The notes under the pieces were generated by a model, which saw nothing but the letters and a program-made list of their open reading frames with translations, made no database searches and was not told the origin of the DNA. A stretch of DNA of 64,000 bases from Gammaproteobacteria bacterium (GTDB taxonomy: Bacteria; Pseudomonadota; Gammaproteobacteria; SZUA-152): contig JAKIUN010000005.1 of the NCBI GenBank assembly GCA_021647505.1, forward strand, positions 33,927-97,926, in the 5' to 3' direction. Below, in pieces: positions 1 to 10,084 of this stretch (positions are counted from its first letter, which is position 1; each line of letters opens with the position of its first letter). The translations under genes were made by a program, and so were the position numbers.

Positions 1-533
1 CCGGCTACAGCGTCTCCAGTATCGTTACGGCCATGAACCGGCAGCTGCACGCACTGATGCCGCGGGATCGTTTTGTCGCCGCCACCGTGGTGGCCTTCGA
101 TGAAAGAAACCGGCTTTTCGAGGTGTGGAACGGCGGCAATCCCGAGGCGCTGCTGGTGGATGACAACGTCGGCGTCATCCACCGCTTCGAGCCGCGTTCA
201 CCGCCGCTGGGCATCGTCGGCGAAGACGACTTCGATGCACGTACCGAGATATTGCAAGTGACTCAGGGTGCGGAGTTGTTGCTGTATTCGGATGGCGTGC
301 TGGATGCTGACGATGTACAGGGAAATACTTTCGGTGAGGGTGGGTTGGCCATGGCCATCGATGGGAAGGGCGAGCCGAGTGTCTGCGGACGTGTTGCTGC
401 GGCGCTACAGACACACCTCGGTCAGCGCCATGGTCAGGACGATATCAGCGTGGTGGGTATACGCTGTCCTGCACCGGATCAGCCTGAACCGGATTCCCCC
501 GAGGTTGGCGAGTCGCCCGATGAGATGAAGTGA
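1..533 (+). CDS. PP2C/SpoIIE-type protein serine/threonine phosphatase domain protein, 3' part (5' end lies outside the window)
   Basis: The ORF runs off the left edge of the window. Its translation carries PP2C/SpoIIE phosphatase C-terminal motifs (DGVLDA, GDDISVVGI). GC content is high, as in the core genome. Confidence 0.55.
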   Translation, partial: GYSVSSIVTAMNRQLHALMPRDRFVAATVVAFDERNRLFEVWNGGNPEALLVDDNVGVIHRFEPRSPPLGIVGEDDFDARTEILQVTQGAELLLYSDGVLDADDVQGNTFGEGGLAMAIDGKGEPSVCGRVAAALQTHLGQRHGQDDISVVGIRCPAPDQPEPDSPEVGESPDEMK

Positions 534-783
534 AACCCAGAAAGCGTGGCGTCGTCCCATCTCAGGTTCCACTTCATTATCCACCGGGGGCTCTTCGAAG
601 AATTGTGTGAAGGCCTATGGGGCCATTTTCAGGCCACCACAATAAAACAATATGCTATTTCTGAATCCATCGAAGAACCCCACCGGGCTACCCTCCAGGC
701 TTTTCTCAAGACCGCATCCACATTTGTTGCCTTATTGAAATACTCTGATTTTTAGGTTAATAGGGGGACAGACCACGGTTCCC

Positions 784-2014
784 ATGAAAAATATGGGCAA
801 ACCATGGCCTTCCCCCTATTTGCTCTATTTGCGTTCAAACGACGCAGAGGACTGTCCGTGCCAATTGTTTTTGATAGCTGTTTTAATGTTACTGATCGGC
901 AGGTGCCCGTCTTCGGCATTTTACTTATCGGATTCGGCATCGTTTCAGGTTTTTGCTCGATTACCCGCCCATTTTTTTCCAAAAAAATCGGTATTACAAA
1001 AAACGATTAGTTGCATTCAGGATGATACCTGGGAACGTATTAACAAACGCCTCATGAAACAAGCAAAACAGGAAAAAATAGAGCACGGCAAAAAGTCCGC
1101 ATTGATAGTACCGTTACCGAATCGATGATACATGCACCGACGGACAGCAGCTTGCTACTGGATTGTGTGACGGTGATGGTGCGCTTACTGAAACAGCGCC
1201 AGGAGATGGAGGGTATACCCCCAATAGCGTTTGCAATCATCGACGAGTCGCTAAAAAACGTGCGCGTGCGATTGTTTATACGCGAGGAAAAAAGGCTAAA
1301 GCAAAGCTCTATGCTGGCCTGCTCAGCGCCACCCATAAAACCGTCGGTTATCTGGAGCAGGCACAACACATCCCGGCTACAACGCCATCACAGGCATGGG
1401 ATCTTTGGAATGCCCACGTCAACCACTATAAGCCCTTGATAAAACGCATAATTGACCAGGCAAAACGCCGCGCATTTGCAGGGGGAAAGGTGCCGGCAGT
1501 AGAGAAATTATTCAGTATTTTTGAAGTGTATACAGACATTATTATCAAAGGCGGTCGGGAAATACAGTACGGACATAAGCTTAACTTGAGCACCGGGAAA
1601 AGCGGCTTGATTCTGGATGTTGTCATTGAACAAGGTAATCCTGCTGACAGCGAGAGATTAATGCCGATGGTAGCCCGCCACATCAAAAATTATGGCAATG
1701 TGCCACGGCAGCTTGCAGTTGATGGTGGTTATGCGAGTAAAGAAAACCTGGAGGCGGCCAAGGCTCTTGGAATAGAAGATGTTGCGTTCCATGAGAAATG
1801 TGGACTGCACGTTGAAGACATGGTGAGAAGCACCTGGGTCTACCGACAGTTACGAAACTTTCGAGCAGGCATCGAAGCGGGGATCTCCTGTTTGAAGCGG
1901 GCCTATGGGTTATCGCGTTGTACTTGGAAAGGGTTTGAGCATTTTAAATCCTATGTCTGGTCATCGGTGGTATCGCACAATCTTGCGTTGTTAGCGCGAC
2001 TATCGCCGACGTAG
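784..2014 (+). mobile_element. IS4/IS5-superfamily (IS1182-like) insertion sequence with a transposase ORF split over three frames (likely degraded)
   Basis: Three consecutive overlapping ORFs (784-1128, 1125-1439, 1163-2014) lie in different frames. The last one carries a DDE transposase C-terminal region (VDGGYASKEN ... SHNLALLAR). Together they would give about 410 aa. GC content is low compared with the flanks. Confidence 0.55.
1163..2014 (+). pseudogene. DDE transposase, C-terminal catalytic portion (frameshifted relative to the N-terminal ORFs)
   Basis: A 283-aa ORF with an IS4/IS5-type DDE domain. The N-terminal segments lie in other frames upstream. Confidence 0.55.
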
Positions 2015-2218
2015 ACAAGCGAAGAACATATTTTTTTCTTGGGATGGTCGTCTCGGGGGTTGGTATGCCGAAAAACAGGGAAAATCGATATTACCTGACA
2101 AGTAGGGTAAGACTTTTGGCTGCAAACAAAAAAATCAGCACGCAAGAATCACAAATCTGGCGTTTTTTTAAGTAGAATTTTGAAATATGGTCGTTTATGG
2201 ACGGGCACTAATTAGTTA

Positions 2219-3397
2219 TCAAGTTTCTATAACTTTAAGCATATTTTTTCTCCAGGAATCCCAAGAGCATTTCTTTAAAAACACTTTATATGAAAAGTAA
2301 CAAGCTTCTTCGTATAAAGCCTTATCCTTATAATTTTTTATAATGTAATCTACATATTCACTTGTTTTCGTTGATACACATCCATTCTTTGATGTTACAA
2401 GCTCCGGAACACCTCCTGTTGGAGAAGTAATAATTGGGCATCCAAATGACATTGCTTCAATAATTGAAATGGCTAAGCATTCAGCCTTAACTGGAAATAA
2501 AAAATAATTTGCTTTTTTATATAGTGAAATCAAATCACCAATCCCTTGTCTTGTTGATTTTTGAATATAGGGAATGACTGTAAGAAAGTCAGGCTTATGC
2601 AAATTATCAGGCATCTTAACACCACAAATAGTTAATTTAGATTGGATCCCCTTTTTATTTAAAATATGCACAACATCTAAGGCTTGTTGACATCCTTTTC
2701 TTTCCCAATCAACCCCTATAAGTAAAAACTCAAGAATATCATTTTTATGTTTTTTCTGAATACACGCATCAATATCACTTATTAAAAATTCATCTGGAAT
2801 ATTAGGGCCTAATGGAAAAGCATGAACATCACTTATATTTTTACCATAATCATTAATTGCTGAAGTTGCAGCCCATTGAGAACGATAAACACATTTATAA
2901 GCTTTCTCTATAGAAGATTTTTCTAAAAAACTAAGAAATTTTTCATGATGTTTTGGTAAATTAGTAAACCCTGGGTAATAATTCACCATTAAGCTACATG
3001 TGGCATCTGACATATATATGATTGGAATATGCGATTCTAATAACCCAATAACTAAGCTACCCTTGTCTGAAATTAAATAATCATAATTATTATTATTTTC
3101 TAAATGACAGTTAATTTTTTTTGTATAATATTTAACAATTAAAGAAAATCCTTCCCAGTTATAAGGCTTATTAAATGCTTTCCAAAAATACGCCGTCATT
3201 TTAGCAAGAAAAAACCTCCAGTAGAAATCTATATACTTGCACTCAAAATGTTTACTTTTAGGGCATAAATTATCTAACATATCTACATTGAAAATTTTTC
3301 TAAGATTTTCAACTATAGAATATGATGTCCCTGAAAGAATATTTGGATTAGAAATATCCCGACTAGAAATAACTAACACATTTTTCATAATGCCCAT
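2219..3397 (-). CDS. glycosyltransferase family 4 (GT-B, GT1/GT4-type)
   Basis: A 392-aa ORF with a typical GT4 C-terminal motif (FPVKAECLAISIIEAMSFGCPIITSPTGGVPELV). It is very AT-rich (foreign composition) and flanked by the IS element and non-coding AT-rich DNA. Confidence 0.7.
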   Translation of the reverse strand: MGIMKNVLVISSRDISNPNILSGTSYSIVENLRKIFNVDMLDNLCPKSKHFECKYIDFYWRFFLAKMTAYFWKAFNKPYNWEGFSLIVKYYTKKINCHLENNNNYDYLISDKGSLVIGLLESHIPIIYMSDATCSLMVNYYPGFTNLPKHHEKFLSFLEKSSIEKAYKCVYRSQWAATSAINDYGKNISDVHAFPLGPNIPDEFLISDIDACIQKKHKNDILEFLLIGVDWERKGCQQALDVVHILNKKGIQSKLTICGVKMPDNLHKPDFLTVIPYIQKSTRQGIGDLISLYKKANYFLFPVKAECLAISIIEAMSFGCPIITSPTGGVPELVTSKNGCVSTKTSEYVDYIIKNYKDKALYEEACYFSYKVFLKKCSWDSWRKNMLKVIET

Positions 3398-3970
3398 TCT
3401 CTCTTAGATAATGCCAACCTTATTGGATTAACTTTATTTTTATCACTATTGTTCACTTCTAAAAGCGTTACATCCCCATTATAGGGCCAATGGAGGGCAG
3501 GCCACAATTAATGCACACTACAACGCCATTCGATTATTACGCCCGACTGGACGACTGAATTGGATCTGACCCGAACGGGCCGATTGATCAGCGGTGTTCC
3601 CTACCATTCTACTGTCCCCACTTCATGTTATTTTCACCTCTGTGTATGCGGCTTCACCTGTGATTTTAGTGGGTGTTGCGGAGATGTGCCGATAAAAATC
3701 CAAGTATTTCGATAAGGAATGCGCATGTTTTTTGGTATTTCGGCAGCATTTTGGCCCGGTTGCAGTGTGAGTAACATGATTAGGGGGTTGGGAATAACAA
3801 GCCGAGGCAATATAGCCAGAAGTGTAGCTTGGCACATTAGGTATATTTAGTAAACTGGTAAACTGGTAAACTGTTACCGTAATTTTTGGCGCTTCAGGGT
3901 GATACCCGGAATTTCGGCTAGGCGTTGCAGGGAAACTTCTTGCTCGAGTCATTCGATTTCTGTTTCCGGG

Positions 3971-4158
3971 ATTCGGGAGATTTGGTGCGCGCTCTTCCCG
4001 GATTCCACTTTTTTTATCCGGGCGGCTTGCTCAAGACAGTGATAGCCGCTGAACCTTGAATCTCCGTCCCTTAATTTTCCCCTCGACCATGTGTCGCAAG
4101 GCATCTTTTGCCACTTTGTTGCTGACGGCGACACAGCTGTGCCTGTCGAAGATGTCTG
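3971..4158. repeat. direct repeat copy 1: a duplicate of the 3' end of dbpA (about 120 bp of coding sequence) plus about 67 bp of downstream DNA
   Basis: Nearly identical by eye to 5322-5509 (a few mismatches). It carries no start codon and cannot encode a functional protein. Confidence 0.8.
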
Positions 4159-4271
4159 ATGGGCAGGGGTCAAGTCTTGCCTTTTGCCTTTTTTAGACTA
4201 TTTTTGATATATGGCTAGACTATTACGAATAGGGCAAAAGGAAAGACCTGACCCCCATCTCCCATCTCCCG

Positions 4272-5183
4272 CTACTGGGCTTCTTCATTTGCTTGCAGGT
4301 TGAGCAATATGCCTTTCTCGGACTCAACTACAAGTGGTTGAAAATTATCATCGAGCTTTAGTTTTAAGTTAGGTGTAGATGTATACTCAACCAAAGTTTC
4401 CTTTATGACGGGATAGTTATCCTTAACATAAGCTTGAAGCTGTTTAACCGTAAGGAGCAGAGAATCTGATTGAATAACCGCGAGAATAGGATATTTACTG
4501 TGCGAAAAGCCACCACCTAAAGGCATGTATTCTGTCCCATCGCTGACCACAATAGTGGTATTTGCCGCTTTTTTCCGCAAAGTTCTCCTTTGCTCAGTAG
4601 TTAACACTGGTGTGTCGGAATCAATCTTGAAAATATAAGGCTCAATTACATGAGGCCAATTATCATGCATAATTTGAATTAAATCGGTGTTCGTCCATGT
4701 GACAGATGAACCATCAGCTTTCTCATGTTTCATGATATCAATTAGGTACGCATTGTTCATATTAAAGTAAACAAATAACAACTTTTCACTTCGACTTTCT
4801 TTAAAATGTAAGTGATAAATACCCCACTCTGATCTAAGCAAATCTGCATGCTTAGCTTGATTTAATTTTTTAGATTTATTGCTCAGTAATCCATTGACAT
4901 CTTCGCCACTCTCGAGTTTTCGTGCAATATCACTAATTTCATTCCATCTTTCTAATTTGCTTGAGATATGAACATTCCATTGAGTGACTGGAATTCTTCT
5001 GGAGTACACTGTGAAAAAGTTAACCAGAAAATTGCTTAAATCGTAGTGTTGAATTTTGTTTTTTAGTTCTTCACTGCGTTTATCTTGTGATCGCAGTTGT
5101 TCGTATGTAGGAACTGTTAGTTCAGCTTCTTGAAGTAGTCTTTGAAGCTCATCAGCTAGGTCGGATAAAAAATCAAAATTCAT
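4272..5183 (-). CDS. hypothetical protein (303 aa, AT-rich, no recognisable domain)
   Basis: A long clean ORF with low GC. It lies exactly between the two 188-bp direct repeats derived from the dbpA 3' end. Confidence 0.5.
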   Translation of the reverse strand: MNFDFLSDLADELQRLLQEAELTVPTYEQLRSQDKRSEELKNKIQHYDLSNFLVNFFTVYSRRIPVTQWNVHISSKLERWNEISDIARKLESGEDVNGLLSNKSKKLNQAKHADLLRSEWGIYHLHFKESRSEKLLFVYFNMNNAYLIDIMKHEKADGSSVTWTNTDLIQIMHDNWPHVIEPYIFKIDSDTPVLTTEQRRTLRKKAANTTIVVSDGTEYMPLGGGFSHSKYPILAVIQSDSLLLTVKQLQAYVKDNYPVIKETLVEYTSTPNLKLKLDDNFQPLVVESEKGILLNLQANEEAQ

Positions 5184-5321
5184 CTATGAACTCCTTGTTG
5201 GATAAGTGCCTAACATTTGCAAACCGAGCCCTGGGAGATAACAAAGCGACCCCTGTATTTGATATTCGCTTAATCTGCTGACTGGATATACAGCAATCTA
5301 GTCCGGATAGTGCGAAGCGTA

Positions 5322-5509
5322 ATCCGGGAGATTTGGTGCGCGCCCTTCCCCGGATTCCACTTTTTTTATCCGGGCGGCTTGCTCAAGACAGTCACAGTCG
5401 CTGAACCTTGAATCTCCGTCCCTTAATTTTCCCCTCGGCCATGTGTCGCAAGGCGTCTTTTGCCACTTTGTTGCTGACGGCGACACAGCTGTGCCGGTCG
5501 AAGATGTCG
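5322..5509. repeat. direct repeat copy 2: the native 3' end of dbpA and downstream DNA (att-like site)
   Basis: It matches 3971-4158. It overlaps the last ~40 codons of dbpA, which ends at 5392. Confidence 0.8.
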
Positions 5510-6771
5510 ATCTTGCCAATCTGCTCGCCGGGGATGCCGCCGTCGCGGGTGAGGGCGCCGAGGATGTCACCGGGGCGGAGTTTGTCTTTGCGGCCGCCGC
5601 CGATTTGCAGGGTGACCATGCTGGCGGTGTTGGTCTCGGCGGTTTTTTGTTGGGGACGCAGACTGTCGAGCGGGGTCAGTCTGGCGGGTTCATGCTGTTC
5701 GGCTTCGATGGCGCTGAGGCGGTGAGTTTCTTCCGGGGTAAACAGACTCAGGGCGCGGCCGCTCTTGCCGGCGCGCCCGGTACGGCCGATGCGGTGGGTG
5801 TGTACCTGCGGGTCGGGGCTTAACTGGAAGTTGATGACCAGTGGCAACTCGTCGATGTCGAGGCCGCGCGCGGCGACATCGGTGGCCACCAGGATGTTGC
5901 AGCTTTTGTTGCTGAACTGTACCAGTACGTCGTTGCGCTGGCGTTGTTCCAGGTCGCCGTGCAGGGCCTGGGCGTGATAGCCCTTGTGTTGCAGGTGTCT
6001 GGCGACGTCGTCGCATTGTCGCTTGGTGTTGCAGAAGATCAGTGCGGCCTCGGGCAGGTAGTGGGCCAGCAGGGTGAGCAGGGCGTCGTTTCGCGTCTCC
6101 TCGCGGGTTTCAAAAAAGTGTTGTTCGATGTGCGGCGCGCTGTGTGTCGGTTCGGCGCTGACGCGCTGAGGCTGGCGCTGAAAGCGCTGGCTGATTTGCT
6201 GGATGGCGTCGGGGTAGGTGGCGGAAAAGAGCAGTGTCTGGCGGCTGTCTGGGGTGTGTTTGATAATGGCGCCGATGTCGTCGATGAAGCCCATGTCGAG
6301 CATGCGGTCGGCCTCGTCCAGCACCAGGCTGCGCAGGTGATGCAGATCCAGTGAGCCTTTTTGCAGGTGTTTCTGAATCCGCCCGGGGGTGCCGACGATG
6401 ATGTGTGCGCCGTGTTGCAGGGTCGCTATCTGCGGGCCGAGGCTGGTGCCGCCGCACAGGGTGACCAGTTTGACGTTCCGCAGGCCGCGCGCCAGCCGAC
6501 GGATTTCCTTGCCCACCTGCTCGGCCAGTTCGCGGGTGGGGCAGAGCACCAGCGCCTGTACCTGACGCGTGCCCGCGTCGAGTGCGTTGAGCAGGCCGAG
6601 GCCGAAGGCGGCGGTCTTGCCGCTGCCGGTTTCCGCCTGGGCGATGAGGTCGTGGCCGGCCAGAATCGGTGGCAGGCTGAGGGCCTGGATCGGTGTCATG
6701 TGGTGATAGCCGAGGCTGTCGAGATTGCTCAGCAGGGCGGTTGGCAGGGAGAGTTGGCTGAATCCGCTCAT
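5392..6771 (-). CDS. dbpA: ATP-dependent RNA helicase DbpA (DEAD-box)
   Basis: Motifs GSGKTAAFGLGLL, PTRELAEQV, LVLDEADRMLDMGF, SAT and HRIGRTGRAG, plus a C-terminal DbpA RNA-binding domain. The track ORF starts at 7050, but the homology-supported start is the ATG at 6771 (MSGFSQLSLPTALLSNLDSLGYHHMTPIQ), giving 460 aa. Confidence 0.85.
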   Translation of the reverse strand: MSGFSQLSLPTALLSNLDSLGYHHMTPIQALSLPPILAGHDLIAQAETGSGKTAAFGLGLLNALDAGTRQVQALVLCPTRELAEQVGKEIRRLARGLRNVKLVTLCGGTSLGPQIATLQHGAHIIVGTPGRIQKHLQKGSLDLHHLRSLVLDEADRMLDMGFIDDIGAIIKHTPDSRQTLLFSATYPDAIQQISQRFQRQPQRVSAEPTHSAPHIEQHFFETREETRNDALLTLLAHYLPEAALIFCNTKRQCDDVARHLQHKGYHAQALHGDLEQRQRNDVLVQFSNKSCNILVATDVAARGLDIDELPLVINFQLSPDPQVHTHRIGRTGRAGKSGRALSLFTPEETHRLSAIEAEQHEPARLTPLDSLRPQQKTAETNTASMVTLQIGGGRKDKLRPGDILGALTRDGGIPGEQIGKIDIFDRHSCVAVSNKVAKDALRHMAEGKIKGRRFKVQRL

Positions 6772-6925
6772 AGGTTGTGCTCTGGTGTAAAGTGGGGCCG
6801 GGAGAAGTCCCGCGTTGCGGGCATGATAGCAGTTGCGTGGGGTGTGGTTGATACGTGCGAGCATCTCAACTCTCACCCCAGGCCCCTCCCAGTCTTGGGA
6901 GAGGGAGAGAAAAGCAGGAGAAGGT

Positions 6926-7837
6926 ATGAGCACTGAGGCAGTGGCTGAATTAAATGCGTGTTTCGGCATCCGTGAGCGGGTGACGTTCAAGCAGACGGAG
7001 GGCGGCCTGATTGTGGCTGAGGTGGGCAATGCGCAGGCCACGGCGCGCATTGCGCTGCAGGGCGCGCAGGTTCTCGACTGGACGCCAGCGGGCGGGCAGC
7101 CGGTGATCTGGGTGTCGCCGGGGGCGATCTATACGGCGGGCAAATCGGTGCGCGGCGGGGTGCCGGTGTGCTGGCCGTGGTTTGGGCCGCATGCGACAGA
7201 GGCGGAATCCCCCGCCCACGGCTTCGCCCGCACCCAGTGCTGGGAGATGGTGCAGGCTCAACAGTTGTCCGACGGCAGCACCACCCTGAGCCTGCGGCTG
7301 TTGCAGGATGCCAATACCCGTCTGCTGTGGCCGCATGATGCCGAGTTGTTGCTGCTGGTGAATGTCGGCCGACGTCTGCAGATCGACCTGCTGACGCGCA
7401 ACACGGGTGATGAAGCCTTCACGGTGACTCAGGCGCTGCACACCTATTTTGCCGTCAGCGATGTGCGTGAGGTCTCGGTGCAGGGGCTGGAAGATCTGCC
7501 TTATATCGACAAGGTGGATGACGGCGCGCGTCGCGTGCAGTCCGGGCCGGTGACCTTTTCCGCCGAGACCGACCGCATTTATCTCGACCAGGGCGGCGAG
7601 TGCGTGATCCATGACCCGGGCCTGCAGCGGCGTATTGTCATCCGCCGCGAGGGCAGCCGCTCGACGGTGGTGTGGAACCCGTGGATGGAGAAGTCCGTGG
7701 CGATGGCGGATATGGGCGAGGGTGCATACCGGGGCATGCTGTGTGTCGAGGCGACCAATGCGGCGGAGGATGCCGTTGTTGTCGAGCCGGGCGGGGAACA
7801 TCGCTTGCAGGTGAGTTATCGGCTGGCGTCGCTGTGA
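6926..7837 (+). CDS. yeaD: D-hexose-6-phosphate mutarotase (glucose-6-phosphate 1-epimerase, YeaD family)
   Basis: Conserved RGGVPVCWPWFGP and AHGFAR motifs. ATG at 6926 preceded by AGGAGAAGG. 303 aa. Confidence 0.75.
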   Translation: MSTEAVAELNACFGIRERVTFKQTEGGLIVAEVGNAQATARIALQGAQVLDWTPAGGQPVIWVSPGAIYTAGKSVRGGVPVCWPWFGPHATEAESPAHGFARTQCWEMVQAQQLSDGSTTLSLRLLQDANTRLLWPHDAELLLLVNVGRRLQIDLLTRNTGDEAFTVTQALHTYFAVSDVREVSVQGLEDLPYIDKVDDGARRVQSGPVTFSAETDRIYLDQGGECVIHDPGLQRRIVIRREGSRSTVVWNPWMEKSVAMADMGEGAYRGMLCVEATNAAEDAVVVEPGGEHRLQVSYRLASL

Positions 7838-7852: not shown

Positions 7853-10084
7853 GTGAGTGACGATGGGGTTGCCGAGTCTTTCGCGGCTGAAGCCGCTCCC
7901 ACAGTGGATGTGCCGCTGTGGCGTCTCGATGGCATCCGGCGGCTGGCGAGCCGTCTGCGTGAACAGGCTCGGGCCTCGCGGCAGCGCCGGGCGCTGATAC
8001 TGGCGGGAGATGCCGACTGGGGGCGGGCGCTGGCAGACGACCTGTGCCACACGTTGCCGTTGTCGCCGGCAAGCTGGGTAAGTGCTCACTCACCGGATAC
8101 AACGGATTCCCTGAGCGGCCGACGGGCGCTGGCCCTACTGGGGCAGGAGCGCGAGGCGGTGGTCTTTGATGCCCATAGCGGCTTCGACCCGGACGTGTTC
8201 GGTGCCGTATCGGGCGCGGTGGTGGGCGGCGGCCTGCTGATCCTGTTGACACCGTCGCTGGACCAATGGCCTGACTTCGCCGACCCGGCGGCCGAGCGCA
8301 TCAGCATCGCGCCGCTGACCTTTGCGGATGTGTCGGGGCGTTTTCTGCAACGGCTGGTGCGGCTGTTGAGCGCGGCGGAGGGCGTCACCGTGGTGGAACA
8401 GCAGGCCGAACAGTTGCTGGTATTGGCAACGGTTCCTGTGCAGCCCGAGCCTGCGCCACTATTCGAGAGCGGCGGCTTCCGCAGCGCCGATCAGCAGGCC
8501 GCCGTGGCGGCGCTGGAGCATGTGATCCACGGTCACCGCCGCCGGCCGGTGGTGCTGGTGGCTGATCGCGGCCGTGGCAAGAGCGCCGCGCTGGGTATTG
8601 CCGCGGCCCGGCTGTTGTGTGATGGATTGCAACGTATCGTGATCACGGCGCCGCGCATCGATGCTGTCGCCGCGTTGTTCGAGCAGGCCGCGTGCCTGCT
8701 GCCGGAGGCCCGCCAGCGGCGCGGCCGGTTGCAATGGCGTGAGGCCAGTATCGAATTTCATCCACCCGACGAACTGCTGTTGAACCCCCGTGATGCCGAT
8801 CTGCTGCTGGTGGACGAGGCCGCCGCCATTCCCGTGCCCCTGCTCACCTGCCTGCTCAAACGTCATTCGCGCATCGCCTTCGCCACCACTGTGCACGGCT
8901 ACGAAGGCACTGGGCGCGGCTTCGCGGTGCGCTTTCGGTGCATACTGGATGTCTTGACACCGGGCTGGCGCGAAGTACACCTGCAGACACCGATCCGCTG
9001 GGCCGCCGATGACCCCGTCGAGCGCTTTATCTTCCGCGCCCTGTTGCTGGACGCCTCGGCCGCCGCCGATGACGATGTCGCCGATGCCGTCCCCGCCCGC
9101 TGTGAGTTCGTTCGCTTTGATCGCGACGCCCTGGCGGCCGACGAGCCGATCCTTTCGCAATTATTCGGTCTGCTGGTACAGGCCCATTACCGCACCCGCC
9201 CCAACGACCTGCGCAACTTGTTGGACGGCCCCGGCCTGCGCGTCTATGCGTTGCGCCTGCGGGGACAGATCGTGGCCACGGCGCTGGTGGCGACAGAGGG
9301 CGGATTCGATGCCGACATGGCGGAGGCCATCGCCACGGGCAAGCGCCGTCCGCGCGGGCACCTGATCCCGCAATCACTGGCGGCGCACCTGGGGTTGAGC
9401 GACGGCGCACGCCTGCGCTGCGTGCGGGTCATGCGCATCGCCGTGCACCCGGCGGCACAGCGCCGGGGGCTGGGCACGCTGCTGCTGCAACGGATACGCG
9501 AGCAGGCAGAGATTGACGGTTTCGACCTGCTCGGCGCGAGCTTCGGTGCCAGCGAAGACCTGCTGGCGTTTTGGCGTAACGAGAAGTTGCTGCCCGTGCG
9601 ACTGGGTTTCAGCCGTGACCACGCCAGCGGTACCCATTCGGTGATGGTGTTGCAGGCGCTGAGCGATAAAGGCGCAATGGCCTATACCGCCGCCCGCGCA
9701 AGATTTCTTACCGATTTTCCTCTGCAGCTGGCCGATCCTTTGCGTGAGCTGGACTCGCAACTGGCGGCGCTGCTGCTATGCCGGAATGTGGCTGATACGG
9801 TGTTGGATGTATCACTGTATCCGTGGGACAAGCGGGAAGTCGATGCCTTTGCCGAGGGCGCACGCAGCTTCGAGGATGTCCTGGCGTCACTGTGCCGGCT
9901 GTCGTTGTCTGCACTGGCAAAGCCCGGTAATGGGCTGGATGCCGGGGCTCGGGGCTTGCTGGTGGCAAAGCTACTGCAAAAACGCCCCTGGGGCGAGGTC
10001 GCTGAATGGATGAACCTGGCGGGCCGGGCAGCCGTGGTGGCGGATCTTCGGCGCATCGCGAAGGTCATAACGGATTCGGCATGA
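7853..10084 (+). CDS. tmcA: tRNA(Met) cytidine acetyltransferase TmcA (helicase-like plus GNAT domains)
   Basis: RRPVVLVADRGRGKSAALG Walker A, TTVHGYEGTGRGF, and a C-terminal GNAT (RIAVHPAAQRRGLG). Collinear with E. coli TmcA. GTG start at 7853. A REP-like 24-mer lies in the first 50 nt, so the true start could be the GTG at 7904. Confidence 0.8.
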   Translation: MSDDGVAESFAAEAAPTVDVPLWRLDGIRRLASRLREQARASRQRRALILAGDADWGRALADDLCHTLPLSPASWVSAHSPDTTDSLSGRRALALLGQEREAVVFDAHSGFDPDVFGAVSGAVVGGGLLILLTPSLDQWPDFADPAAERISIAPLTFADVSGRFLQRLVRLLSAAEGVTVVEQQAEQLLVLATVPVQPEPAPLFESGGFRSADQQAAVAALEHVIHGHRRRPVVLVADRGRGKSAALGIAAARLLCDGLQRIVITAPRIDAVAALFEQAACLLPEARQRRGRLQWREASIEFHPPDELLLNPRDADLLLVDEAAAIPVPLLTCLLKRHSRIAFATTVHGYEGTGRGFAVRFRCILDVLTPGWREVHLQTPIRWAADDPVERFIFRALLLDASAAADDDVADAVPARCEFVRFDRDALAADEPILSQLFGLLVQAHYRTRPNDLRNLLDGPGLRVYALRLRGQIVATALVATEGGFDADMAEAIATGKRRPRGHLIPQSLAAHLGLSDGARLRCVRVMRIAVHPAAQRRGLGTLLLQRIREQAEIDGFDLLGASFGASEDLLAFWRNEKLLPVRLGFSRDHASGTHSVMVLQALSDKGAMAYTAARARFLTDFPLQLADPLRELDSQLAALLLCRNVADTVLDVSLYPWDKREVDAFAEGARSFEDVLASLCRLSLSALAKPGNGLDAGARGLLVAKLLQKRPWGEVAEWMNLAGRAAVVADLRRIAKVITDSA

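Follow-up and report, generated by a model that had tools for sequence, protein, structure and literature searches.

A PD-T4-7-family gene resembling a stranded integron cassette between duplicated ends of dbpA in a gammaproteobacterial genome

In a 64,000-nucleotide stretch of the genome of a Gammaproteobacteria bacterium (GCA_021647505.1, contig JAKIUN010000005.1, positions 33,927 to 97,926; the whole stretch is referred to here as the window), one open reading frame (ORF) of 303 amino acids lies between two direct repeats of the 3' end of dbpA, the gene for a DEAD-box RNA helicase (Table 1). By its profile matches, this ORF is a member of PD-T4-7, an already described single-gene antiphage family. 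Judged from its flanks, it is a stranded former integron cassette: the R' half-site and the ribosome-binding-site region are still present, and the attC of the cassette is gone from a point two codons ahead of the former stop. The repeats have the appearance of two dbpA tail alleles that recombination would have stacked in a hotspot of variable content downstream of dbpA, and not that of the att sites of a dedicated element. We regard the joint reading, in which a PD-T4-7 protein, a stranded cassette, and two stacked tail alleles come together, as reasonably probable. The locus is an ordinary defence gene in an unusual place; current concepts are left unchanged by it, and what is of wider interest is the origin of the doubled dbpA tail.

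A member of the PD-T4-7 family

The 303-amino-acid protein matches two PADLOC profiles of the PD-T4-7 family, PDLC04066 (E value, 8.2e-31; residues 58 to 289 against profile positions 45 to 294 of 337) and PDLC04065 (E value, 2.1e-29), which together cover residues 38 to 289. Both profiles are also matched by each of the 34 aligned homologues (34/34; best E value, 5.4e-48). Searches of Pfam, NCBIfam, and PHROGs gave no match, and the statement in the first-pass annotation that the protein has no recognisable domain therefore holds for these three collections and fails for PADLOC. The gene is not the orphan that it had been called, because the PD-T4-7 profiles are matched and a profile search of 1.84 billion representatives (clustered at 50% identity) returned 3,366 family members at an E value of ≤1e-3 and 969 at ≤1e-30, most of them 280 to 330 amino acids long. 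The guess that it would be a defence gene was borne out by the PD-T4-7 match and by homologues standing beside other defence genes, namely PDC-S06 in Halomonas alimentaria and AbiGi and ParE/Phd cassettes in Vibrio cholerae arrays.

PD-T4-7 was recovered by functional selection from Escherichia coli UMB0103 as one coding sequence of 1,059 bp, was validated against T4, and was grouped with toxin-antitoxin-like systems that give abortive infection (PMC9519451, Vassallo 2022). The function that had been taken as undescribed was accordingly found and validated in 2022 (PMC9519451), in what is a large family. The label "RelE toxin-like" came from weak HHpred matches (YafO, 51%; TssC/sheath, 28%) in the same study (PMC9519451), and a later survey still gives the mechanism as unresolved. 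Like the E. coli system (RRN43039.1), the window gene is a single-gene system on mobile DNA, with a significant profile match over approximately 250 residues, and its product pairs a weakly RelE/YafO/YafQ-like stretch with a sheath-like one. Unlike the E. coli protein, it is about 50 residues shorter (303 versus 352 amino acids), its kind is carried as an integron cassette in marine bacteria and not near an integrase as in E. coli, and its antiphage function is a predicted one.

The protein has 81 close homologues, the closest cassette homologues being 82 to 89% identical, and a Gammaproteobacteria metagenome-assembled genome (MAG) encodes a hypothetical protein of identical sequence. The enterobacterial homologue used for comparison, a 355-amino-acid protein on a Klebsiella plasmid, is about 27% identical (E value, 6e-20). 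The window ORF is full length, retains all residues that are invariant in the family, and is identical in two assemblies. The organisation as a single gene is consistent across the arrays of V. cholerae, V. metschnikovii, Litchfieldella, and the metagenomes, in which there is one ORF per cassette and the neighbours differ each time, and no partner ORF for the gene was found in the window. The locus adds a marine, cassette-borne, shortened branch to PD-T4-7.

Integron cassette origin and expression

Homologues were found in arrays made up of short genes with a common orientation, the usual form of sedentary chromosomal integrons, in V. cholerae (L006 to L009), V. metschnikovii (L004 and L005), Litchfieldella anticariensis (L002 and L003), and metagenome contigs (L010 to L012). 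Each array homologue is preceded by ...GCGTTATGCGT 24 to 27 nucleotides (nt) ahead of its start codon and has its stop codon inside the GCATAAC box of the next attC. The flanking attC sites are VCR-type in V. cholerae and V. metschnikovii, and attC sites likewise flank the homologues in the Litchfieldella and metagenome arrays. The minus strand of the window reads caaatGTTAGGCacttatccaacaAGGAGttcatagATG, colinear and gap-free with the homologous cassettes, and its GTTAGGC aligns with the GTTATGC that the V. metschnikovii, V. cholerae, and metagenome cassettes carry 24 to 27 nt ahead of the ATG, the untranslated region in the window being 24 nt long. At the 3' end, cassette similarity ceases after ...aatgaagaa (position 4281), two codons before the stop, and the protein ends in NEEAQ, compared with NEE(Y/H)A (encoded by ..GCATAAC) in the cassette homologues. 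An attC belonging to the gene itself was not found, as the cassette homology ends ahead of the GCATAAC R'' box. A scan of window positions 1 to 6000 for complementary RYYYAAC...GTTRRRY boxes, combined with folding, gave just weak or intragenic candidates for an attC elsewhere, and the same positions contain no integron array (intI/attI or other attC). As these arrays indicate, the PD-T4-7-family gene moves in marine Gammaproteobacteria as a promoterless integron cassette.

Integron cassettes carrying streamlined antiphage systems have been described by Darracq et al. (bioRxiv 10.1101/2024.07.02.601686), in the main text of which PD-T4-7 is not named. The homologues found here are similar to those cassettes in being single-ORF cassettes of sedentary chromosomal integrons in Vibrio and of arrays in Litchfieldella (Halomonas group), and in being a shortened version of a known system. 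The window copy differs from them in lying outside any array and in having no attC.

The position of attC is occupied by a palindrome (H in Table 1), which is unique in the window and has a strong predicted RNA fold (-53.5 kcal/mol; z score, -5.6). It contains no AAC/GTT boxes and no bulged bases, and no Rfam family scored above threshold; the sub-threshold matches were miRNA-precursor look-alikes only, as for a generic hairpin. On the other side of the gene, positions 5205 to 5330, including the spacer (U), fold no better than shuffled sequences (z score, -0.1) and are not attC-like. Neither of these two segments nor the non-coding stretch D beyond the left repeat had a match in plasmids, the 39 fetched loci, or viral contigs.

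The ORF has the same orientation as dbpA and starts 208 nt past the dbpA stop. In consensus scans, no sigma-70-like site was found on the minus strand of positions 5184 to 5330 and no terminator was found between dbpA and the ORF, where the spacer folds without forming a hairpin followed by a U run. Because the two genes share their orientation, with neither a terminator nor a promoter between them, the PD-T4-7 gene is probably transcribed by read-through from dbpA, which would replace the Pc promoter of the integron.

Homologues were also observed outside arrays. In Halomonas alimentaria (L013, 4407 to 8933), the homologue keeps the cassette remnant GTTATGCGT upstream and adjoins a gene for a 797-amino-acid PDC-S06 candidate defence ATPase (PADLOC E value, 0) and umuD/umuC fragments; this locus is a small defence islet outside an array. 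In Pseudoalteromonas, a 2,380-bp piece that is 100% identical in two genomes (L038, 6603 to 8982; L039, 126 to 2505) occupies chromosomal positions that are unrelated to each other. Its parts are a DUF4238 gene, an intact VCR-like attC, a PD-T4-7-like cassette, and a truncated attC, with subterminal inverted GCGGTCATT/AATGACCGC, and it suggests a non-integron route for moving pairs of cassettes. The window locus shows that integron defence cassettes can also persist outside integrons, behind a housekeeping gene able to drive them, and in Pseudoalteromonas the gene has left an array in a second case. In L. anticariensis (L002, 8913 to 10710), the attC after the homologous cassette is broken by an insertion sequence (IS) with DUF772 and DDE_Tnp_1 transposase domains and 36-nt terminal inverted repeats. 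A link between this element and the ISNCY transposase pseudogene of the window was considered and rejected, since the proteins are unrelated.

Predicted structure and mechanism

Remote homology searches and structure prediction had been proposed in the first-pass annotation. The profile search identified the PADLOC family, and AlphaFold2, given the 34-sequence alignment, returned a model with a predicted local distance difference test score (pLDDT) of 90.5 and a predicted template modelling score (pTM) of 0.86. The model has an N-terminal helical bundle (residues ~5 to 60), a central α/β unit with strands at residues 122 to 126, 134 to 141, and 144 to 152, and a C-terminal helical-plus-sheet domain. 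When it was compared with the Protein Data Bank (PDB) by using Foldseek, the top neighbours were YafQ (probability, 0.89; TM score on the target, 0.54), HigB, RelK, YoeB, ParE2, and Cami1, together with a phage tail sheath, none of them significant. This pairing of RelE-like and sheath neighbours independently repeats the weak HHpred picture of the original study. A search of solved structures with the family profile gave a chance-level match to a kinase N terminus alone (E value, 0.04), and a viral fold search of BFVD gave nothing significant, with weak sheath matches again.

Across 56 sequences of 23 to 59% identity, G93, D114, L136, and W176 are invariant, and R62, W120, H124, H126, H153, R203, and a DGTxYxPxGGG loop are among the positions conserved in at least 90%. 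The conserved histidines lie on and after β strands, as they do in the active sites of YafQ, HigB, and YoeB. RelE/ParE-superfamily ribosome-dependent mRNA interferases (YafQ, HigB, YoeB, and RelE) are the best, although nonsignificant, structural neighbours of the central domain, and the model is suggestive, only, of a central α/β core akin to the RelE/YafQ/HigB enzymes. Unlike those interferases, the window protein is three times larger, has no separate antitoxin gene, and reaches no significant sequence or fold score.

Our working model of the mechanism is that of a fused toxin-sensor, in which a single polypeptide would contain a histidine-based RelE-like RNase core with the near-invariant residues D114, W120, H124, H126, and H153. 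The N-terminal helical bundle and the C-terminal domain would keep this core inactive until a phage cue frees it, upon which translation would halt and the infected cell would be sacrificed. We infer both the activation step and the RNase chemistry of the PD-T4-7 protein from conservation and the model. The high-confidence model and the near-invariant residues D114, H124, H126, H153, R62, R203, and W176 offer targets for mutation.

Duplication of the dbpA tail

Direct repeats of the dbpA 3' end around a single foreign, low-GC gene had been reported in the first-pass annotation, and both observations stand. Each repeat comprises 118 nt of dbpA and 70 nt downstream. A repeat search of the window pairs 3997 to 4156 with 5349 to 5508 at 96% identity, as well as 3971 to 4015 with 5322 to 5366, shifted by a 1-nt indel. 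Alignment with MAFFT and blastn pairs 3974 to 4156 with 5325 to 5508 over 184 columns at 95.65% identity (E value, 3.8e-82; 8 mismatches and 1 indel), corresponding to a repeat of about 186 bp. The GC content of the enclosed ORF is 36.5% (32% at third codon positions [GC3]), versus 63.7% (GC3, 80%) for dbpA and 59.3% for the rest of the window. A third copy was not found by blastn anywhere in the 64-kb window, and the far end of the larger island is thus unmarked.

Four of the six differences in the coding part of the repeats are synonymous. Where the right copy (B) and the left copy (B') differ, B matches the nearest relative, an Ectothiorhodospiraceae MAG (L014/L035), at 4 of 5 comparable coding sites; the complete DbpA of the window is 95% identical in amino acid sequence to that of an Ectothiorhodospiraceae MAG. 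The same repeat-ORF-repeat structure is present in a second assembly of the organism (GCA_021648705.1, L001). It is not an artefact of one assembly, because the second is distinct from the window elsewhere by single-nucleotide polymorphisms (SNPs) and indels. An assembly chimera was also rejected, as the junction between the palindrome and B' has no k-mer in common with dbpA and the structure recurs with different SNPs. A dif/pdif-like Xer site in the non-coding part of the repeat was considered and rejected as well; by eye, the GGTGCGC half alone fits.

A second copy of the tail was absent from all 17 related dbpA loci. A scan with DbpA (21 loci, three close relatives) found no empty site with the same flanks, and a metagenome scan for a degenerate form of the tail yielded a single contig, from the same relative as L014. 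The search for an empty site that the first-pass annotation had proposed instead met different downstream DNA in all three close relatives. The sequence downstream of dbpA differs in every relative examined; in L035 it holds a gene for a transposase of apparent RAYT type, and in L015 an ORF of 1,073 amino acids. The position behaves as a variable hotspot, and it may attract foreign DNA in the clade as a whole. The L035 ORF (~8500 to 9091) lies approximately 0.6 kb past dbpA and by eye resembles a REP-associated/IS200-like tyrosine transposase.

The window and L001 are identical across the island, and 17 SNPs distinguish them inside dbpA (5680 to 6741), 15 of these at third codon positions, with one more at 6772, outside the gene; the other ~13 kb aligned contains 4 SNPs outside dbpA. 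At 14 of the 17 sites in dbpA, it is the window allele that is divergent when the nearest relative is taken as the reference. Because the SNPs between the two assemblies are concentrated in dbpA, recombination tracts appear to end there, and the pattern looks like homologous exchange with a lineage of ~1.6% divergence that ends inside dbpA, next to the island. In every pairwise comparison the tail is the fastest-evolving part of dbpA, its identity between two relatives without this insert being 60%, versus ~85%. The 4.4% divergence between the repeats is compatible with alleles, because the tail evolves several-fold faster than the gene body.

Among the models for the repeats, we tentatively favour the stacking of two alleles. 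Two closely related strains would have differed in the cargo that followed dbpA. A donor segment composed of dbpA, tail B, the spacer, the cassette, and the palindrome would have entered a recipient with dbpA, tail B', and the glycosyltransferase island. Two events would be needed, a homologous crossover inside dbpA and an illegitimate join where the palindrome meets B' (...CCCATCA/GACATC..., where dbpA has ...AAGATC/GACATC...; the slash marks the join), and they would have left both cargos stacked and the dbpA tail doubled. These events are like homology-facilitated illegitimate recombination in natural transformation, of the de Vries and Wackernagel type, in having one homologous anchor (dbpA), one junction with ≤3 nt of microhomology, and an allelic SNP tract in the anchor.

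Several points weigh against the joint reading. Homology to the validated E. coli protein RRN43039.1 is shown solely through the PADLOC profiles. No structural match in the PDB is significant (best Foldseek E value, 0.11), and the RelE-like assignment is weak here as in the original paper. The microhomology at the junction is 3 nt only, with one extra base, and homology-facilitated illegitimate recombination commonly deletes recipient DNA and does not duplicate it, whereas here it would have duplicated 186 bp. Neither a parental haplotype nor an empty site was found. Lastly, identity to the nearest relative falls from 97 to 99% to 79% inside the repeat, with the break near position 5471 and the GC content going to 52%. 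The break comes after a block of 38 nt over which the window and this relative do not differ and whose start coincides exactly with that of the repeat, and the last 120 nt of dbpA have a GC content of just 45% in that relative. This drop in identity also fits an att core followed by a surrogate tail borne by an element.

That fit leads to the foremost alternative to stacked alleles, a decayed island of the integrase type, which we consider unlikely. An element with a surrogate dbpA tail would have inserted by site-specific recombination at a core near GACATCTTCGAC...GTCAGCAA, and later deletions would have removed the integrase and everything beyond the defence gene, including attC. The left copy would be an att site in common with an earlier island (glycosyltransferase and IS) that had integrated in like manner. 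The locus does resemble islands at a gene 3' end that bring a surrogate gene end, in that imperfect tail repeats flank foreign low-GC cargo and the gene stays intact. Such islands classically leave imperfect direct repeats of a gene 3' end as their footprint, and here the repeat has exactly the same start as the shared block, beyond which identity and GC content change as described (the GC content being 52% in the window and 45% in the relative). The breakpoint two codons before the stop would look as if selection had retained the ORF alone, and the two AATAGTCTA repeats in the loop of the palindrome could, speculatively, be arm-type binding sites. However, the locus departs from known 3'-end islands in that no integrase was found, the cargo is 1.16 kb, and no recurrence of the site was seen in the relatives examined. 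The first-pass annotation had noted that there is no integrase between the repeats. The ORFs tested in window positions 1 to 7000 (within the tract, the transposase fragment, the glycosyltransferase, the 303-amino-acid ORF, and five small ORFs of positions 546 to 3952) did not include an integrase, nor did the genes listed in the 1.3 kb of contig beyond. The far end of the older island carries no third copy of the repeat, the 17 related loci are without a doubled tail, and the tail is the fastest-evolving part of the gene also between two relatives that lack this insert. At least two independent deletions would also be required. With no integrase, no second tail in the related loci, and no empty site found, and with copies that differ like alleles of related strains, the repeats do not by themselves demonstrate the site-specific integration of which they had been called the signature.

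A Campbell-type insertion is improbable. Here a 1.35-kb circle (tail copy, spacer, cassette, and palindrome) looped out of the DNA of a related strain would have entered by a single crossover in the dbpA tail, which would yield the exact order B-X-B' with two diverged copies and would need no integrase; homologous exchange in dbpA is evident in the population. Against this, the donor would need to have had the duplicated arrangement beforehand, or another route to circularisation, the 186 bp at 95.6% identity is a poor substrate, and no circle junction or donor was found.

More improbable again, though of greater consequence, is that the 186-bp repeat is a genuine attachment site. In exchange for its attC, the former cassette would have gained a mimic of the dbpA tail, and it would now move as a micro-element of 1.35 kb with one gene and no integrase, on which a recombinase encoded elsewhere would act in trans, with the palindrome and its two AATAGTCTA as an arm or accessory site. 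If true, this would be a new route by which defence cassettes leave integrons and home to a housekeeping gene that supplies transcription. That the ORF is a decaying, functionless passenger and the locus recombination debris is highly improbable: despite the lost attC, the transposase pseudogene nearby, and a left dbpA tail that is without its stop, the ORF is full length, 82 to 89% identical to its closest cassette homologues, and identical in two assemblies, with the family-invariant residues kept and its ribosome-binding site intact.

The surrounding low-GC tract

The low-GC tract extends over approximately 534 to 5321, far beyond the repeat-bounded segment, and includes the transposase and glycosyltransferase genes (Table 1). 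The description of the foreign DNA in the first-pass annotation was accurate as regards the single-gene cargo between the repeats and incomplete in that the ex-integron cassette origin and a further 3.4 kb of foreign tract to the left were missed.

Table 1. Features of the dbpA locus and the adjoining tract (window coordinates)
Feature	Position	Strand	Description
Left edge of low-GC tract	534-680		3' end of response-regulator/SpoIIE phosphatase gene
ISNCY-family transposase pseudogene	1163-2014	plus	3' two-thirds, truncated or frameshifted; NCBIfam NF033593 2e-82, profile 172-444 of 444, under curated cut-off
GT4 glycosyltransferase gene	2219-3397	minus	29% GC, GC3 20%; Pfam Glycos_transf_1 1e-16; older cargo of the same variable tract
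Non-coding stretch D	3398-3970		44.7% GC, after left copy; holds GTAAACTG x3 array
Left repeat copy (B')	3971-4158	minus	Displaced dbpA tail fragment; begins mid-codon-frame at GACATCTTCGAC; Ala to Val, stop TGA to TCA
Palindrome H	4159-4271		113 nt, near-perfect; arms 4166-4193 / 4228-4255; loop with 2 x AATAGTCTA; occupies attC position
PD-T4-7-family gene	4272-5183	minus	303 aa; single ORF between repeats; PADLOC profile matches
Ribosome-binding site	5191-5195	minus	AGGAG, 7 nt before ATG; kept in L004 and L010, AAGAG in L012
Cassette 5' boundary	5208-5214	minus	GTTAGGC, R' core (G/TTRRRY) remaining from upstream attC
Spacer U	5215-5321	minus	107 nt between repeat and cassette boundary; no match in fetched loci, plasmids, viral contigs
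Right repeat copy (B)	5322-5509	minus	Functional dbpA tail: last 118 nt including stop TGA (5392-5394) plus 70 nt downstream; completes DbpA RNA-binding domain
dbpA	5392-6771	minus	Intact, 459-aa DEAD-box RNA helicase; core gene bordering variable tract; Pfam DEAD 3e-50, Helicase_C 3e-30, DbpA 4e-27

The glycosyltransferase gene is clearly foreign, with its 29% GC in a genome of 59% GC. It also has a sub-threshold match to the Pfam family GT4-conflict (E value, 0.0025) and none in PADLOC. Upstream of the ISNCY transposase gene, the ORFs at 784 to 1128 and 1125 to 1439 had no match in Pfam.

Two further differences were observed between the window and L001. At the left edge of the tract (581 to 679), the window has, and L001 lacks, a 91-bp segment between 8-bp repeats CCACCGGG, which gives the response-regulator/SpoIIE phosphatase gene a different 3' end. 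The tandem array of GTAAACTG (3850 to 3873), upstream of the glycosyltransferase gene, is a variable-number repeat with three units in the window and two in L001.

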